The position numbers were made by a program, and so were the translations under genes. A model generated the notes under the pieces. That model was not told the origin of the DNA. It did no database searches and saw only the letters and a program-made list of their open reading frames with translations. Source: Desulfosoma sp. (GTDB taxonomy: Bacteria; Desulfobacterota; Syntrophobacteria; Syntrophobacterales; DSM-9756). Taken from it: a stretch of DNA of 64,000 nucleotides. The DNA is taken from the NCBI GenBank assembly GCA_037481835.1, contig JBBFKW010000012.1, positions 93,505 to 157,504 on the forward strand, written 5' to 3'. Of this stretch, positions 20,536 through 29,138 are shown piece after piece. Position 1 is the stretch's first letter, and each line of letters begins with the position of its first letter.

Positions 20536-20793
20536 TTACGGAATCTCCGTTTCCCCCGTTTCTTCGAGGAGCCTCTTGAACCGTGCGGAATCCCTCACCC
20601 GGCGCGCCCCGGCCGCTTCGGCATCTTCCTGTGTGAGATGAATTTCCCCGCATTCGGGACACGTCACGTTGAGCTGGTCGCCGATGATGCGTTCTCGGAT
20701 TTCGTCAACCGTCATGTGGCCGAGGAATCCGCATTTGGTGTCCACGCGTCGGGCGCGGACACGAAAGGGAAAGGGTTTTTCCCCGCTGGCCAT
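20536..20793 (-). CDS. Small hypothetical protein, possible Zn-binding
   Basis: KCGFLGH and CPECGEIH; GAGG RBS. Confidence 0.65.
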   Translation of the reverse strand: MASGEKPFPFRVRARRVDTKCGFLGHMTVDEIRERIIGDQLNVTCPECGEIHLTQEDAEAAGARRVRDSARFKRLLEETGETEIP

Positions 20794-20908: not shown

Positions 20909-21316
20909 TCAGTGCTCCGGGTCGAGGGCTTCCAGGGTTTCGGCCATGTCCCGGCACGCCTGGACGAAGGTTTCTGCTTCCGACGAAGCGCACCAAACCA
21001 TGCGGAACCGCTCCGGTTCCAGCCCCATGGCATCCATCATCTCCTGGATCACCAGCCGCCGGGCGTCCGCTCGGATATTGCCGTCTTTGTAGTGGCATTC
21101 GCCCAGTCGGCATCCCATGACCAGCACGCCGTCCGCTCCCAGAGCGAAGGTTTCCATCACGAGCTTGGGATGGACCATGCCGGAACACATGACCCGCACG
21201 ATCCGGATGTTTTCCGGATAATCCAATCTCCGGATCCCGGCCAGGTCCGCGGCGCTGTAAGCGCACCAATGGCACGCAAAAACGACGATCTTCCCCCCTC
21301 CGTTTCCGGAAGCCAT
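20909..21316 (-). CDS. mvhD: Hydrogenase iron-sulfur subunit MvhD/FlpD
   Basis: FACHWCAYSAADLAG, RVMCSG, GADGV..GC..GECHY..GN. Confidence 0.93.
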   Translation of the reverse strand: MASGNGGGKIVVFACHWCAYSAADLAGIRRLDYPENIRIVRVMCSGMVHPKLVMETFALGADGVLVMGCRLGECHYKDGNIRADARRLVIQEMMDAMGLEPERFRMVWCASSEAETFVQACRDMAETLEALDPEH

Positions 21317-24300
21317 CACGCCGCTCCGCTTTCTTCCGACCGCAGAATGGCCTTCACCTGCTGCAAGAGTTGGGGCACGCTGAATCCCGCCACACGGATC
21401 CCGTCCTTGGGACAGGTGGCCTCACAGATCCCGCATCCTTTACACAAAGCCGTGTTCACCGCCGGAAGCCGCGTCTCCTCAGGGGCCTCCCGGGTCCCTT
21501 TGGGATAGTCCTTCCAGCGGATCGCCTGAAACGGGCACACATCCAAACACAGAGCGCACCCGTCACAGTTTTCCGGAACCACATGGGCCTTGATGGCATC
21601 CAGGGCCTTGCGACGCGTGGCCAAAACGGCTGCAGCCCGAGCCGTCACCGCCTGGGCTTGAGCGATGACCTCGTCCAAGGGCTTGGGATAATGGGCCAGA
21701 CCGGCCATGAAAATCCCTTCCGTCAGAAACTCCACGGGCCGCAGCTTGGCATGGGCCTCTTGGAAAAACCCGTCGGCGTTCAAAGGCAGTTTATAAATCT
21801 TGGCCAATTCCTCCACATCCGGCTGCGGGACGATGGCCGTGGCCAAAATGACCACATCGGCCCGCACGGTCAAAGGCATGTGGAGCACATGGTCCGTCAC
21901 CCTCACGTAGAGTTCGTTCGGGCCGAGGCGTATGGTCGGCTTATGGTGCCTTTCGTAATTGATGAACACCACGCCTTTTTCTCGAGCCTTCTTGTAGAGG
22001 GACTCCCTGAGTCCGTAAGTGCGCACGTCCCGGTACAGGATGTAGACGTCCCGGGTGGGGTCTTCTTCCTTGAGTTCCAACGCCGCCTGGATGGAATGGG
22101 TGCAGCAGACTCGAGAGCAATAAGGCCTGTCGGGCTCACGGGACCCCACGCACTGGATGAAGACAAGGGTCTTGGCACCCGCAATGCGCTCATCGCCCAC
22201 GGCACGGAGCTTATCGAATTCCAGGGCCGTGAGCACCCTTTGGGACTCGGCGTAACCGTATTCTTCGGGCTTGTAGGCCGTGCCGCCCACGGCCAGGACC
22301 GTCACCCCATGATCCACACTGATGGTCGCCCCGCCTTTCTTGATGGTGGATCGAAAATTCCCCACGAACCCTTCCGCGGCGACGACTTCGCTCTTGAGAT
22401 AGACGCTGATGTAAGGGTGAGAGCGCACGCGAGCCGTCAGCCGATCCACGAAGGCGGTGATGTTTTCCCCCTTCCAGGTACGGAAGAGATGGCGTGCGTT
22501 GCCGCCCAGCTGGGAACTCTTTTCCACGAGGTGCACCGGGAACCCCTGGTCGGCCAGTCCCAGGGCCGTCACCAAACCGGCCACACCGCCTCCCACCACC
22601 AGAACCGTCGGATTGACATTGACAGTCACCGGCGGCAGCGGCTCCTGCGCGCACACCTTGGCCACCGCCATGCGCACCAAGTCCACGGCCACGGCCGTGG
22701 CCGCCCGCGGATCCTTCCCATGGACCCACGCCGATTGGTTGCGGATGTTGGCCATGTCGAACAGGTACTCATTGAGCCCGGCGTTCTTGAGGGTCTCCCG
22801 GAAAAGGTTTTCATGGGTCACGGGCGAACAGGCCGCCACCACGACGCGGTTCAGAGCGCACTCTCCGATGCGCCGCCGGATCAGTTCCTGGCTGTCGTGA
22901 GAACAGGCAAACAGCTTGCGTTCCACGTGGACCACATAAGGGAGCCGGGAGGCCGCTCGAGCCACTTCTTCCACATCCACGACTCCGGCGATGTTGGACC
23001 CACAATGGCACACGAACACCCCCACCCGAGGCGCTTGTCCGACCACAGGCCGTTCTTCGGGGAAGTCTTTGAGCCGCGACAGACTGTTTCGCACATCGGA
23101 CAGAGGGACGGCCGCCGCGGCGGCCGCCGCCGATCCTTCCAGCACCGCCTGGGCGATGTCCTTGGGCCCCACGGCCGTGCCGCAGGCGTAAACGCCCGGT
23201 CGGGATGCCGTTACGGGTTCGAAGGACGAGGTTTCCACAAAGCCGTGGGCATCGGTTTTCAGCCCCAAACGTTCATAAAGGCTCTTCGTCGCCGATGGGA
23301 CCTCCATCCCTACGGAAAGAACGACCACATCGAAGACTTCCCGACGCCGCCGGCCCTCTTCGGACGTATAATGCACCACGAGCCCACCGCCTTCTTCGGC
23401 GGGTTCCACAGCCGGCACGCGGCACGGGACGAACCGGACCCCTCGGTCCCTCATCCCGTTGAAATAGCGCTCAAAATCTTTTCCCGTGGTGCGCATGTCC
23501 AGGTAAAAAACCGCCACGTCCAGCGACGGATCGCCTTCCAGGGCCATGGACGCTCCCTTGACGGCGGTCATGCAGCACACGGACGAACAATAGGCGTGGC
23601 TTTTTCCCGTTTCGTCCCGGCTCCCCACACACTGGACGAAGGCGACTTTGCGGATGGGCCGCCCGTCCGAAGGCCTCACCAAGGGCCGCCGGTGGGATCC
23701 TGCGGCGGCAAGCATGCGTTCCCAGATGTGGGATGGAAGCACATCGGGAAAAACACCGTAACCCCAAGGGTTTCGCTCGGGGGGCTCAAAAGGCTGAAAG
23801 CCCGGCGCCAGGATCACCGATCCCACGGTCACCGTCACCCAGCGTTCCCGGTCGTCCAAGCGCACGGCCTGAGCCGGACAGACCTTTTCACAGGCCCGAC
23901 ATGTCCCTTGGGTGAGGTAAAGGCATCGATGGGGGTCGATCTGGTAGGTCAACGGAACGGCCTGAGGATAAGCAAGATAAATGGCGGAGCGCTCCGCCCA
24001 CGGCCCGCATCGGGGATCCCTGACCACCACGGGGCACACCCGGGCGCAGTCGCCGCAGGCCACACACCGCTCGGGGTCCACATAACGGGGCCGCTGTCGC
24101 AAGGTGGCCTGGAACCGGGGCGCCTCCCCTTCCAGGCGTTCCAGCTCCGTCAGGGGCATGAGTTCAATATTGAAGTGCCGACCGCACTCCACCAGCTTGG
24201 GCGCCAGGATTCACATGGCGCATTCGTTGGTGGGAAAGGTCTTGTCCAGGCGGGCCATGGTGCCGCCGATGGCCCCGCCCTTTTCTGCAAGATAGACGAA

Positions 24301-24390
24301 ATAACCCGCTTCGGCCAAATCCAAAGCCGCCTGCAGGCCGGAAATGCCGCCGCCGACCACGAGCACGGCGCCCACCTTCTGGCGTATCAT
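21316..24390 (-). CDS. hdrA: Large tandem heterodisulfide reductase subunit A-like selenoprotein (1024 aa, Sec60)
   Basis: N-term [10 protein letters not shown]...[25 protein letters not shown] in frame with the 958-aa ORF; two CVGSR/YCS.VCC repeats; ATGA overlap with upstream gene. Confidence 0.9.
24171..24191 (-). promoter_or_regulatory. Bacterial SECIS hairpin
   Basis: TGGAGTGC-GGTCG-GCACTTCA stem-loop with G-led loop 27 nt 3' of the UGA at 24213-24211. Confidence 0.75.
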
Positions 24391-25859
24391 CCCACCACCT
24401 CACGAGGTGCCTTGGAAGGCACGACCAGGGCTTCCGCCACCAGTTCCCACAAGAGCTTCACGTCCACCGAAAGATCGTATTCCTTGCGCAGACTTTTCAG
24501 GATTTGATCCCGGCAGGTGTGGCAGGACGTCACCACCAGCGAGGCACCGGTGCGTCGAATCTGGAGCGCCTTATGGCGGCCGTGAAAAACCCGCTCTTCG
24601 TGAAACGGCAAAGCCGCAAGCCCCCCACCGGCCCCGCAGCAGTAGGCGTCTTCGCGGTTGGGAATCATCTCCACAAAATCCGCGCAGCACCAGCGCAGGA
24701 TCTCCCGGGCCTCTTCGTCATACGCCTTGCCGAACGCCTTGGCGGACTTCCGCGTCACATGGCACGGATCGTGATAAGTGGCCGCCTCCGCAAAGGGCCG
24801 GTCTCGGAGTTGAATTCGGCCGCTTCGGATATAGTCTAGGAGAAGATCGAAAAGCGTCACCACTTGAAACCGCCGGGATTCTTCGGCATACCAGCGGCCG
24901 AGCCCCATGCGCACCGCATGGTAGGCATGGCCGCACTCGGGCAAAAGCAGGGTTTGGCACTCGAGCCGACGCATGGCCTCCACGATTCGTCCCACGCCGA
25001 GCCGCACCGCCTCGTCATCGCCCGTGTAGGCCCCCCATTGCACCCCGTCCCAATTTAGCGTTGGGATCGTCCAGGATTCTCCCGCGGCATAAAAGATCTT
25101 CCACCAGTGCTTCATCTGCCGCGGTTCCGCAAAGGGCTCCTTGGAATTGACCGTGACCAAGAGCCGAGCGCCCTTCACATCCAGAGGCACCCGAAATCCG
25201 GGGCATTCTTCTTCGGCCAGTTCCCGCGCCACGGCTTCACAACAGGCGATGAAGTCTTCGCGAGGAATGCCCAAATTGTTGCCCGTCTCCGCCATGGTCA
25301 GGACACCCTTGTGGAGCGAACCAGGCACCCGATCCCGTTCCCGGGCCCGCCGCACCGCCGTCATGAGCCCCGTGATGTCCACGCCCATGGGGCAGGCCTG
25401 TTCGCACTTGCCGCACAGGGTGCACTTCCACGGCCACGAAGCCGCCACCAGATCCTCTTCCATGCCCAAGACGGCCATGCGCACGACTTTTCGCGGATCC
25501 CAATCATCCACCCCGGAGATGGGACACGCCCCGGCGCAACTGCCGCACGTGAGGCACACGTCGGCCCCCAGGGACGAAAGACCAAAGGGGTGATGGCGCG
25601 CCCCCAATACCGTCTGCCCTTCCCAGTCCTCCTCGGGTTCGGACGCCGCCGCCGACGCCGCGGAAACCCGCCGGAACTGCAGGGCCGACGCATCCAACCC
25701 ATAGGCATGACACAGCCGGATGAACTCCTCTTCGTCCACCAGGTAGCGCTTACCCGGCACCCGACGCGCCGGCAGCCGACCGCTTCGGATCCAGTTTCGG
25801 ATGGTGTTTCGATGCACGCCCAGCTGCTCCGCCAGGCGGCCGATCTGGACGACGATCAT
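24387..25859 (-). CDS. HdrD-like Fe-S/CCG oxidoreductase with N-terminal excisionase-type (HTH_17) domain
   Basis: [23 protein letters not shown]; two CxxCxxCxxxCP; YHDPC, CCGAGGG, SCHTC. Confidence 0.88.
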
Positions 25860-26356
25860 GGATTGACCCCCACGTGCCGAAGAAGGAGATCCACGGCTCG
25901 AGGCACCGCTTCCGCCACGGCAGGCGACAAGCCCGGGGCCACATGGTCGGGCAACTCAGCCGCCTGCACCGCAAGGATGGCCACCCGCACCCCTCCTTCT
26001 TCGGCCAGTTCCCGCAAAAGATCCGCCGAAGGGAACTGGTGCATGAGAAAATCCGCCCGCTTGACCGACGGCACCTCCTGGGGCGAAAGCCAGAAAAGCT
26101 CACCCGGATCACGCCCCGAAACCTGCAGAGCGTCCACGATGTAAAGGGCTTGGGGTTTTTCCGCCGAAAGGACCATGTCGAACAAGAGGTCGCTGAGAGC
26201 CGTTCCCGCATCCACAACGCACACATGAGCCGGCAAAGCGTCGTTGGCCGCCAAACGGTCCGCCACCGCCGGGCCGAATCCATCATCGCCGAAAAGGGTG
26301 TTGCCGCATCCAAGAATCACCACGGAAGCGGAAAAAAGCCGGCTTCGTTCACTCAT
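25856..26356 (-). CDS. Hydrogenase maturation protease (FrhD/HycI-like)
   Basis: ILGCGNTLFGDDGFG, VDAGT, IVDA; GGGAGG RBS. Confidence 0.88.
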   Translation of the reverse strand: MSERSRLFSASVVILGCGNTLFGDDGFGPAVADRLAANDALPAHVCVVDAGTALSDLLFDMVLSAEKPQALYIVDALQVSGRDPGELFWLSPQEVPSVKRADFLMHQFPSADLLRELAEEGGVRVAILAVQAAELPDHVAPGLSPAVAEAVPRAVDLLLRHVGVNP

Positions 26357-26402
26357 GAAACAAAGTCCTCCCGGTCCTTGTGCATCTTGTGCATCGGCAG
26401 GT

Positions 26403-26431
26403 TTCCTACCTCGACCCCGCCCGTTTGTCAA
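26403..26431 (-). promoter_or_regulatory. Putative sigma-70 promoter of the hdr operon
   Basis: TTGACA-17-TAGGAA; tandem ATGCACAAG repeat at 26377-26394 just downstream. Confidence 0.55.
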
Positions 26432-26489: not shown

Positions 26490-29138
26490 TCAGGGTTGAT
26501 GCGCTGTGGCGGGTTCGCCGGAGGTGGATCGGAGAACTGCCAGGAGATCGGCGATGCGATAGGGCTTGGTCAGGATGGTGATGTTTTCGGCCTTGCCGAT
26601 GCTTTCGGCCAGGGAGGCGCTGCTGTAGCCGCTTGTGAGCACGACGGACATCCAAGGGTATCTTCGGCGGATTTCCTTGTAGCAGGCGCCGCCTCCCATG
26701 CCGGGCATATGGAAATCCAAAACGACCGCATCCACGCGGGGCGCTTCCTTATCGAGCACATCGAGGGCCTCTTCGCCGCTTGCGGCCTTGAGCACCCCAA
26801 AGCCTTCGGCTTCCAAACTTTCCGTTACGAATTCCAAAAGTGCCGTCTCATCGTCCACGACCAAAACCGTGCACCCCTCTTTTTTCTCAGGCTTTGGTTC
26901 GCGCTGCACGCCTTCGTCTTTCCGGACCGCTTCGGCGGCTTCTGCTCCGCCGGCCCTCTTCACGGGAAAGGTGAGGGTAAAGGTCGTCCCTCGGCCCAGC
27001 TCGCTTTCGCACGTGATGGTTCCGCCGTGGCGTTGGACGATGCTATAGACGGTGGAAAGGCCGAGTCCCGTTCCCTTGCCGGGTTCTTTGGTCGTAAAGA
27101 ACGGATCGAAGATCCGGTCCCGAATGGGTTCGGGAATGCCCTGGCCCGTATCGGAAACCTTCAGGACGACGATGTCCATCCCATCCGGATGCGTGTCCCG
27201 GCGTGTGCTTACGCGGATGCGCCCGCCGCCCCCTTCCCCGATGGCATCCCGGGCGTTGACCACCAGGTTGATGACAACCTGTTCCAGCGCCAGCCGGTCT
27301 CCGTAAACGGCGGGGACATCAGGGGCCAAGTCCGCTTCCAGCCGGATCATGCGCGGAATGTTTCGGCTGAGAAAATCCAGCGTCTCCTCAACGACCCGGT
27401 TGATATCCAGCAGTTCCGGCGTCATTTCGTCCTGGCGGGCGAAGGTGAGCATCCTTCGGACCAGTTCGGCGCCCCGGTCCGCCGCTTCCCGCACGCGTCC
27501 GATCCAACGGCGCTTTCGGTCCGAGCCTTCCGTGTGCATTTCCAAAAGATCCAGGTAACCCGTCATGGCCTGGAGGAGGTTATTGAACTCGTGGGCGATG
27601 CCGCTGGCCAGGGTCCCCAGGGATTCCATCTTTTGGGCGTGGGAAATGATCTTCTCCAGTTCCTGGGCCCTTTTTTCCGCTTCCACCTTGGCGGTCACAT
27701 CCCGCGCCATGATGCGCAGCCCGCGCACGGCTCCTTCCCTTCCGCCCATGGGCCGAGCGGAAATTTCCACCGTCTTGGCCGGCCCGTGATGATCCCGAAG
27801 GACGAAGCTTTTGAGTTCTCCCACGCTCCGTCCCGCCGCCACATCGTCGAAAAACGCGTGCATGGCGCCGACCGTTTCGGGATCGGCCATATCGTGCAGC
27901 GAAAAAGGCTCCGGCGGGGGACCGTCCACGCCCATGAGCCGCAAGAAAGCCGGATTGTAAAACGTGACAACACCATCCGTGTTGATTTCGAAATAGGCTT
28001 CGTGGAGGCTTTCCAGAATCTCTCGATATCTGGCCTCGCTTCGAGCGAGGGCGTCCTGGGCTCGGACCAGTTCCGCCTGGCGACGGACGAGAGCCTCTTC
28101 CCGGTCCCGCACGGCTCGGCCCATCTCTTGAAACTGCCGGGAAAACACCTGGAGCTCGGCAAAGGAGCCGTCGAAGTCCGGCCATGGATCGGTATCCGCC
28201 CGGGAGGCTTCCGCCATGCGAACGGCTTCCCGTGTCAGGCTTTGAACGGGATCGATGATGGAGCGGTGCATACGGCCCATAAGCCCCTGAAAAACGATGT
28301 AGAGGAAGGCAAAGAAAAGGGCAAAGCCGGCCACGGCGGCGCCGAGCACCGGCATGAGTGCCGGAACCAAGGGATAGGCCACAAGGACGACCCAGCCCCA
28401 CGGATCGATCCGCCAACTGATGCCGTAGACGGGCGTTCCAGCCAGGCGCCCCAGGAGCTTGACCCCTTCCGGATGGGCCAACGCCGTGCGCACCAAGGGT
28501 TCATGGCCCACATTTTCCTGCTCTTTGACCACGCGTTCTTCAGGGTGCACGATGGCGTTGCCGTAACGATCCGTGATCCAGACGATCCTTCGGGGCATTT
28601 TTCGCAAATACGCCGAAATGAGCTGATGCAGGCGATCCAAGTTCAGTTCGCCGATGACGCTTCCCCAGCGGCTGGGAATCATGGATGCAATGGTGACCGC
28701 CCCCAAATCGGCGCGGTAGTAGGGGACCGAATAGACCGGCCACGTGCCCGTATCGGGAAAGGCGGAGGCGGCTGGAGGGGTCACGCCTCTTAAGGCAGGC
28801 ACGCTCTCCCCTTTGACGAAAACGCCATAAGACTCCGCTCCGACCCAAAAGATTCGGTGATACAACTGCCCAGCCTCGTTCATGAGGGCCGTGGCGGCAT
28901 CCTCCTCGGGCCCCTTGAAAGTGAAAGCCGTGAGTCTCAGCGTTTCGTCGGCCGATGCGAGAAAACTCGTCAGCTAATTGTCGATGCCCCACGCGATGAT
29001 TTCATGTTCACGCTCCAAGGCACTGATCCGCCAGGCCACGAGCCCCCCGGTAGTCAGCATGGCGACAACGACCAACGGAAGGACGAGGCGCCGGTGCACA
29101 AAGCCTCGAATGACATCAAAGAGGGCTCGATCGCTCAT
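26490..29138 (-). pseudogene. Membrane hybrid sensor kinase (Cache/PAS/HisKA/HATPase/REC) with in-frame TAG at codon 55
   Basis: ATG 29138 with GAGG RBS and TM1, TAG at 28976-28974, frame continues into the 797-aa ORF with AHEFNN, DPFFTTK, GTGLGL and REC. Confidence 0.7.

Follow-up and report, generated by a model that had tools for sequence, protein, structure and literature searches.

An HdrD-like iron-sulfur protein with an Xis/BldC-type winged helix-turn-helix head as a candidate autoregulator of its own hdrA-mvhD operon in Desulfosoma

A gene for an iron-sulfur protein with a winged helix-turn-helix (HTH) domain at its N-terminus was found in a 64,000-nucleotide stretch of DNA from Desulfosoma sp. 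(assembly GCA_037481835.1, contig JBBFKW010000012.1, positions 93,505 to 157,504 of the forward strand), referred to here as the window. The 490-aa HTH-HdrD-like protein is encoded on the minus strand (24387..25859) and was characterized by Pfam, NCBIfam, alignments and AlphaFold2 (AF2) models. Its gene belongs to an operon of four minus-strand genes, in which each stop overlaps the next start codon. The first gene (25856..26356) encodes a 166-aa FrhD/HycI-type hydrogenase maturation protease (Pfam HycI 77.7 bits; NCBIfam hydrog_prot 126.5 bits and frhD 113.4 bits, the latter under its cut-off of 134.95). The HTH-hdrD gene is followed by the genes for a double-length HdrA of 1024 aa, composed of two HdrA-like halves (21316..24390), and for a 136-aa MvhD (20909..21319; Pfam FlpD 165 bits). 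The protease stop and the hdrD start share an ATGA overlap, as do the hdrD stop and the hdrA start (24390-24387), and the hdrA stop and the mvhD start share a GTGA overlap. The translational coupling to hdrA, which had been proposed in a first-pass annotation of the window, is evident from the second of these overlaps.

The gap of 133 nt before the protease gene holds a promoter-like element, a tandem repeat and a Shine-Dalgarno-like GGGAGG (26367..26372), which is located 10 nt ahead of the protease ATG (26356). The promoter-like element (26403..26431, minus strand) consists of TTGACA (26431-26426), a spacer of 17 nt and TAGGAA (26408-26403). A perfect direct repeat, ATGCACAAG-ATGCACAAG, with a period of 9 (26377..26394, minus strand) begins 8 nt past the -10-like hexamer TAGGAA, and its position and its conservation make it a putative operator. 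The first-pass annotation had listed both elements, and both were read from the sequence at the same positions. In a repeat search, the tandem was framed as two copies of CTTGTGCAT with 100% identity, and it was the sole perfect tandem of period 8-12 in the window. Random sequence of this length is expected to hold about 1.3 such tandems for these periods combined and about 0.24 for a period of 9. Taken alone, the leader tandem is not significant; it gains its weight from its conservation in relatives, described below. Other identities were considered for the leader and rejected. A sigma-54 promoter does not fit, as the GC cores of the repeat are 9 nt apart and not 11 as in the consensus, and a Rex operator (TTGTGAA...TTCACAA) does not fit, as the units are direct and not inverted repeats. 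For a small RNA hairpin, at most a 4-bp UGCA/UGCA stem is possible.

The winged HTH head comprises residues 1-55 (25695..25859, minus strand). Pfam HTH_17 (PF12728) matched residues 9-48 with 41.3 bits against a cut-off of 27, and NCBIfam TIGR01764 ('excise') matched with 40.5 bits against 28.8, in agreement with the Xis-like winged HTH proposed from the sequence at the outset. AF2 modelling of the isolated head on 34 orthologous heads gave a predicted local distance difference test score (pLDDT) of 92, and the predicted secondary structure was E2-4, H6-13, H17-26, E31-34, E38-41 and H43-52, a strand and two helices followed by a two-strand wing and a third helix. The closest PDB neighbour of the head was mycobacteriophage Pukovnik Xis (template modelling (TM) score 0.60/0.65, root-mean-square deviation (rmsd) 2.2 Å, 32% identity), which was also its best PDB match by sequence (4j2n, E = 0.005). 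RacA and the BldC-DNA complex (6amk_B, TM 0.61/0.70, rmsd 2.3 Å) were other fold neighbours. By score and by modelled fold, the head is a member of HTH_17/TIGR01764. Residues H16, N18, T19, N22, W23 and C50 were invariant both in an alignment of 68 database homologs, spanning 47-90% identity, and in the 34 locus-derived heads; R17 and R21 were invariant in the 68 homologs and in 33 of the 34 heads. Cys50 (codon 25710-25712, minus strand) is situated in the third helix of the head, and to our knowledge such a cysteine is not a general feature of HTH_17 domains. A stand-alone close copy of the head was not found in the genome of Desulfosoma sp., where the next match had an E-value of 0.05. Its profile scores, conserved residues and modelled fold mark the head as a real, selected domain.

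The head is joined to the rest of the protein by a variable linker of approximately residues 56-95 (25575..25694, minus strand), which is predicted to be disordered (AF2 pLDDT below 50 at residues 67-82) and shows no conservation across the 68 homologs. The length of the tether between head and body is about 35-40 residues. The linker is followed by a 2x[4Fe-4S] ferredoxin (HdrC-like) domain at residues 99-160 (25380..25565, minus strand; Pfam Fer4_8 43.3 bits), in which the cysteines of both cubane sites, C102/C105/C108/C112 and C146/C149/C152/C156, are invariant in the 68 homologs. A C-terminal CCG domain with an HdrB-like fold was found at residues 361-452 (24504..24779, minus strand; Pfam CCG 45.4 bits), with five invariant cysteines, C366, C407, C408, C446 and C449. 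This was the only CCG domain above the Pfam cut-off. In the N-terminal CCG-like half the cysteines for a cluster are gone, and only C301 and C/U309 are retained. The 2x[4Fe-4S] and CCG motifs named in the first-pass annotation are present.

Position 309 (PECGHAY; codon 24933..24935, minus strand) is a cysteine in the window copy and an in-frame TGA in 21 of 35 orthologs (loci L012-L016, L018, L020, L021, L026-L029, L043-L049, L051 and L052). The TGA of the orthologs is probably selenocysteine (Sec), so that the family alternates between Sec and Cys at this position, which is probably in the active site. For the entire protein, AF2 modelling based on the 68 homologs gave a mean pLDDT of 87.8 and showed a compact head, a low-confidence linker stretch and a confident body. 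The best PDB fold matches of the body were mycobacterial EtfD, LutA, HdrB and HdrC. Its best NCBIfam matches, the equivalogs TmcB, HmcF and DsrK, were all sub-threshold (TmcB 201.6 against 735; the others 198.9 against 750 and 157.3 against 400). Because one CCG site is incomplete and HdrE is missing, the sequence argues for an HdrD-like catalytic part of the TmcB/HmcF/DsrK/BamD type and not for a true HdrD. The invariant cubane and CCG cysteines, together with Cys or Sec at position 309, make the body look like an active thiol/selenol iron-sulfur enzyme rather than a degenerate sensor. Codon 60 of hdrA is likewise an in-frame TGA (24213-24211, minus strand) in the context NECAM-U, and was read as selenocysteine. 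An 8-bp hairpin with a GGUCG loop is present about 22 nt 3' of this TGA; its folding energy was no better than that of shuffled sequences (z = 0.38).

Conservation of the fusion in relatives had been named beforehand as a test of the first-pass annotation, and the fusion was found to be conserved. PF12728 was present in 118 of the 120 best database hits, among which the source names Desulfosoma, Desulforhabdus, Syntrophobacteraceae, Desulfobulbus, Desulfopila and Desulfogranum occurred. In six-frame searches, 23 of 41 relatives were found to encode the fusion at full length, as were 18 of 401 genomes sampled from the phylum. The fusion gene was directly followed by hdrA in 34 of 35 loci, the remaining one being cut by a contig end, and it was preceded by the protease gene in 24 of the 35. 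The arrangement is conserved across Syntrophobacterales-, Desulfobulbales- and Desulfarculales-type genomes. A TGA-containing paralog lacking the HTH (about 56% identity) is much more widespread and is also found elsewhere in the genome of Desulfosoma sp., and some genomes have, in addition, a headless second copy of protease-hdrD-hdrA. Two of these copies, from two genomes of the same genus (L073 and L074), retain a decayed piece of the HTH wing and third helix (SAPGK...LCARL-like), in frame but untranslated, after the protease stop and before the start codon of the HTH-less hdrD. This suggests secondary loss of the head after duplication.

Conservation of the tandem repeat was analyzed in 35 fusion loci of 16 genera obtained from the whole-genome searches (set A); one further locus, L031 (G004), where the contig ends inside the gene, is outside all counts. 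For each locus, the 700 nt ahead of the first gene were scanned for TGCACA-N3-TGCACA and the best match was scored, with a threshold of at most two mismatches. All of the first 23 loci had two or three direct TGCACA(A) units with a period of 9, placed after a TTGAC(A/T)-17-TAnnnn element. The repeat stayed beside the promoter-like element both when the protease gene and when HTH-hdrD was the first gene, and also in leaders of about 160-230 nt. In the 700-nt scan, 20 loci of set A had no mismatch, and one, two, three, four and five mismatches were found in 6, 5, 2, 1 and 1 loci, respectively. At L048, L051 and L053 the sites were located beyond the estimated protease start, and a scan reaching 30 nt past the start gave two, zero and one mismatches for these three loci. 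With the extension included, a repeat with at most two mismatches was present at 33 of 35 loci. The two-mismatch match of L024 is away from the promoter-like element, and its promoter-proximal site is a three-mismatch variant common to L017. TTGAC was found 28-60 nt ahead of the best match in 29 of the 35 loci. At Desulfobulbales-type loci the site reads GGCACTGTTTGCACAATG and is located about 25 nt before the protease ATG.

Shuffled upstream regions had at most two mismatches in 2.5% and no mismatch in 0.03% of cases. A second set of loci (set B), drawn from named public genomes and sharing species with set A, had at most two mismatches at 59 of 69 fusion loci compared to 0 of 10 HTH-less loci. 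Among 17 HTH-less paralog loci of about 1500 nt each, one forward and two reverse matches were seen at this threshold, none of them promoter-like. Co-conservation of the upstream repeat with the fusion, the other comparative expectation of the first-pass annotation, was in this way also observed. A search of 41 whole genomes of relatives for the exact pattern gave 31 matches, compared to 2 for the backwards control. The 23 genomes with the fusion accounted for 27 of the 31 and the 18 without it for the remaining 4; 17 were at the promoter of the fusion operon. A search allowing one mismatch in five genomes was noisy, with 17-29 matches per genome compared to 0-15 for the control, and among 30 loci from this search only the four own-promoter sites and L103, described below, adjoin hdr genes. 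Only two fusion loci had both R17 and R21 replaced, L052 (GVHSNTVSNW) and L161 (GVTQTVIKNW), and both were without the repeat. At L052 no match with at most two mismatches was found in the upstream 700 nt and no tandem units were seen by eye in the leader; at L161 the best match had five mismatches, or four in a wider stretch. Joint loss of the arginines and the repeat, seen in two cases only, is the pattern expected if the recognition helix reads TGCACA.

The genome of Desulfosoma sp. contained four occurrences of the exact pattern, compared to about 0.19 expected from the hexamer frequency. An operator matrix was built from 29 sites of other genera, leaving out the own genus, and run over this genome. 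The highest score, 29.1 bits, was obtained at G000:C13:146496-146510 (L039 3997-4011), about 150 nt ahead of a second hdrA gene, hdrA2, which also contains Sec, and the own operon leader ranked second with 25.5 bits. The third site (20.5 bits) is inside a Kef-type antiporter gene and the fourth (18.9 bits) between a LysR regulator gene and an ArgZ-like gene. Downstream of hdrA2 come mvhD, a gene resembling FrhB/FdhB, and the genes for a [NiFe] small subunit and a VhuA-like large subunit. The site upstream of hdrA2 was present in all four genomes of the genus (the others being L063-L065). The presence of a hydrogenase maturation protease in the HTH-hdrD operon would be explained by the hydrogenase subunits encoded in the hdrA2 operon. 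In another genus, four tandem units, TTGCACATT TGCACAAAT TGCATAAGA TGCACAGGA, were found about 25 nt before a separate protease-hdrA operon (L103; G005:C37:132468-132503), in a genome whose HTH-hdrD operon is without the protease gene. The candidate regulon is small: the own operon, the second hdrA-mvh hydrogenase operon and, in the other genus, the protease-hdrA operon. An exact TGCACA-N3-TGCACA directly after TTGACA was also noted in a LysR-type/ArgZ-like intergenic region (G000:C9:76290-76304; L038 at about 3991). The neighbouring gene has an ArgZ-like C-terminal Rossmann domain, and one further genome of the genus also has this site (L070).

Taken together, these observations make it likely that the 490-aa protein is a BamD/HdrD-like subunit that performs DNA-binding autoregulation of its own operon. 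The subunit would belong to a soluble module with the fused-dimer, Sec-containing HdrA and MvhD. An autoregulating subunit of an HdrA-MvhD complex had been suggested by the first-pass annotation, and the comparative evidence supports this suggestion well. The head is a predicted duplex-DNA binder, a prediction supported indirectly by the co-conserved repeat. It would most likely bind the tandem nnTGCACAA units with one head per 9-bp unit in a head-to-tail manner. In Streptomyces, according to PMC5859096, each BldC subunit occupies a 9-bp site and the subunits bind direct repeats of two to four units head-to-tail. The fold, the period of 9 nt and the variable number of units fit a BldC-like mode. 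The first-pass annotation had named such domains as binders of direct repeats, and the 9-bp period here matches the one published for BldC.

Beginning 8 nt after the -10-like hexamer, the operator would be placed at roughly +2 to +20, where binding should hinder RNA polymerase. A bound head would consequently block transcription of the frhD-like, HTH-hdrD, hdrA and mvhD genes, that is, act by negative autoregulation. In the genus Desulfosoma, hdrA2(Sec)-mvhD2-frhB-like-mvhG-mvhA-like is probably a second target operon. Translational coupling of hdrD, hdrA and mvhD would make free HTH-HdrD a readout of complex supply. Among the solved structures that match the fold of the body, those of HdrA-type complexes are dimeric, and with the long flexible tether the two heads of one dimeric complex might reach two adjacent units. 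Binding may be controlled by redox state, by substrate or by assembly into the HdrA complex.

Several observations weigh against this interpretation. The Foldseek E-values of the head were weak (0.01-0.08), which can be attributed to its length of only 62 residues. The TTGACA-17-TAGGAA element has a poor -10-like hexamer and was not called in a consensus promoter scan of the window because TAGGAA is without the final T; the placement of the operator downstream of the transcription start is an estimate. The site at hdrA2 is always on the strand opposite to the gene, in all four genomes. In the 700-nt scan, 10 of the 69 fusion loci of set B missed the threshold of two mismatches, two of these having tandem 9-nt units by eye, L155 just outside the scan and L159 in reverse orientation. 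Desulfobulbales-type loci have a degenerate first unit (GGCACT), and their site follows a TTG(C/A)A(C/G)-17-TA(T/G)TTT-like element at a distance of about 20-25 nt. The counts overstate the number of independent events, as the genomes are related, and co-occurrence leaves room for a different protein reading the repeat.

If the repeat was a real operator read by an unlinked factor with the same phyletic range as the fusion, the head could instead be a protein-protein docking module. A precedent for docking is found in the solved structure of class II benzoyl-CoA reductase, in which, according to bioRxiv 10.64898/2026.04.10.717634, the winged HTH of the MvhD-like BamF contacts BamI. Co-occurrence by itself cannot name the binder, and the sites occurring in trans, upstream of operons without an HTH gene, would also suit an unlinked factor. 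Conversely, residues of the DNA-contact type in the recognition helix (H16, R17, N18, T19, R21, N22 and W23) are invariant in the 68 homologs, and the two loci missing both arginines are those without the repeat. The nearest solved folds are the DNA-bound Xis, BldC and RacA, the 9-bp period suits the BldC mode, and in the AF2 model the head is placed on a long disordered tether and is not packed on the enzyme. The distribution of the exact matches, 4 in 18 fusion-less genomes and 27 in 23 fusion-bearing genomes, also points to the fusion itself, and we consider an unlinked factor unlikely. A repeat that arose by chance duplication, or as a neutral promoter feature without a ligand, is the least credible of the alternatives. 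The single perfect tandem seen in 64 kb is about what random sequence would give at periods 8-12, but the repeat is conserved at 33 of 35 loci in set A and 59 of 69 in set B, between proteins of 50-86% identity, exact matches number 31 against 2 for the control in 41 genomes, and shuffled regions reach the threshold in 2.5% of cases; on comparative grounds this reading is already contradicted.

The head could also bind the repeat and activate transcription, or act on the 5' end of the mRNA through its translation or stability. A transcription start about 7 nt after the -10-like hexamer would make the repeat the first 20 nt or so of the transcript, the Desulfobulbales-type repeat is part of the leader and precedes the start codon by about 25 nt, and a weak -10-like hexamer would be in keeping with an activated promoter. 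MerR-type activators occupy the region between -35 and -10, whereas the 17-nt spacer here does not contain the repeat. In leaders of about 160-230 nt the repeat adjoins the promoter-like element and not the ribosome-binding site, and the repeat at hdrA2 is on the non-coding strand. HTH_17/Xis/BldC domains are furthermore known as binders of duplex DNA (for BldC, PMC5859096). Activation or an effect on the mRNA was for these reasons regarded as improbable.

Concerning the signal that would act on the autoregulatory subunit, a redox signal to the head is a reasonable guess, given the redox enzyme that forms the body and the invariant cysteine of the head. A more specific mechanism, which we regard as speculative and rather unlikely, would make the head a redox substrate of the tethered enzyme. 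Cys50 would be bound in a disulfide or selenosulfide, either to another head or to a different thiol, and the tether would let it reach the Cys/Sec309 site, which would couple the flux through HdrA-MvhD to transcription of the hdr and mvh genes. Electron flow through HdrA-MvhD would then reduce the head and alter its cooperative binding to the tandem repeats. This mechanism is suggested by the invariant Cys50, the tether, the location of Cys/Sec309 beside the non-cubane cluster and the loss of the second cluster site.

The head resembles BldC and Pukovnik Xis in being a small winged HTH of the MerR/Xis type by hidden Markov model, PDB sequence match and fold, and the sites found here, like those of BldC, comprise two to four tandem 9-nt units, although binding is only predicted here. 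BldC and Xis consist of about 55-70 residues and stand alone, whereas the head is fused by a linker to an iron-sulfur subunit of about 400 residues, linker and enzyme together amounting to 430; the head-bearing protein, not being stand-alone, is not a strict member of the BldC family. The invariant Cys50 in the third helix is a further difference. The BldC unit is AATTnnnnC (PMC5859096), compared to nnTGCACAA here.

In bioRxiv 10.64898/2026.04.10.717634, BamDEF combines an HdrBC-fusion/HdrD-like subunit with a Sec-containing fused HdrA dimer and an adaptor resembling MvhD, and the same trio is encoded in the operon. The protein retains two cubane clusters and a single non-cubane one, and its distal non-cubane site is disrupted, which is also the state of most BamD homologs according to the preprint; an N-terminal HTH on BamD is not described there. 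The operon differs from BamDEF in its short MvhD of 136 aa, in a partner that is probably an Mvh-type hydrogenase and in the absence of adjoining genes for the AOR-type BamB/BamC or for BamGHI. None of these genes was present among the neighbours scanned in the window, the whole genome not having been searched for them, and neither AOR-type nor NuoEFG-type genes were among the neighbours scanned around the operon. HdrD and DsrK/TmcB/HmcF share the combination of a ferredoxin-like 2x[4Fe-4S] domain and a CCG domain with the protein. HdrD differs in that the second CCG is incomplete here and the neighbours are the protease, hdrA and mvhD with no membrane partner HdrE, and the DsrK/TmcB/HmcF equivalog scores are far under their cut-offs.

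PutA and BirA are trigger enzymes that repress their own genes. The HTH-HdrD-like protein resembles them in the presence of an enzyme and a DNA-binding domain in one polypeptide and of an operator, here a putative one, at the own promoter, and differs in both the DNA-binding fold and the enzyme class. HdrR of Methanosarcina barkeri is reportedly a dedicated regulator of the heterodisulfide reductase operon; by the title of its description (PMC11218639), this archaeal regulator is a separate protein and not a domain of an Hdr subunit. The first-pass annotation knew of no characterised example, and neither a description of an HTH-Hdr fusion nor a trigger enzyme of this kind among Hdr-type electron-bifurcation subunits was found in the literature searched, subscription journals and supplements being outside its scope. 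Database entries carry the names 'helix-turn-helix domain-containing protein', '4Fe-4S dicluster domain-containing protein' and 'excisionase family DNA binding protein'. Enzyme-repressor fusions are known as a kind; the DNA-binding fold, the enzyme class and the operator would be new here. If the interpretation is true, this would be the first enzyme-fused Xis/BldC head-to-tail binder that we are aware of, and an iron-sulfur/selenocysteine enzyme would join the few trigger enzymes.

Flavin-based electron bifurcation is the function of HdrA-MvhD-type modules in sulfate reducers, syntrophs and relatives of cable bacteria, and we know of little on how their many paralogous operons are controlled. 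The present finding offers a candidate regulator, the enzyme subunit itself, and a defined candidate operator, tandem nnTGCACAA units with a period of 9, and the conserved arrangement makes the regulation of HdrA-MvhD complexes directly testable.

Further genes were noted around the operons. A gene for a hybrid histidine kinase with PAS, HisKA, HATPase and receiver domains (26490-28883, minus strand) ends 58 nt before TTGACA; the end of this gene also precedes the operon in the closest relative (L009) and not in more distant relatives. Directly 3' of mvhD is an 85-aa open reading frame (20536-20793, minus strand) with a CPECG-type motif, for which no Pfam family match was obtained. Downstream of the mvh-type genes of the hdrA2 operon, phage-tail-sheath and Pvc16_N domain genes were found (L062 555-4424, G000:C13), which suggests a contractile injection system or a prophage tail module. 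An Hsp20 gene is also present downstream of the HTH-hdrD operon.

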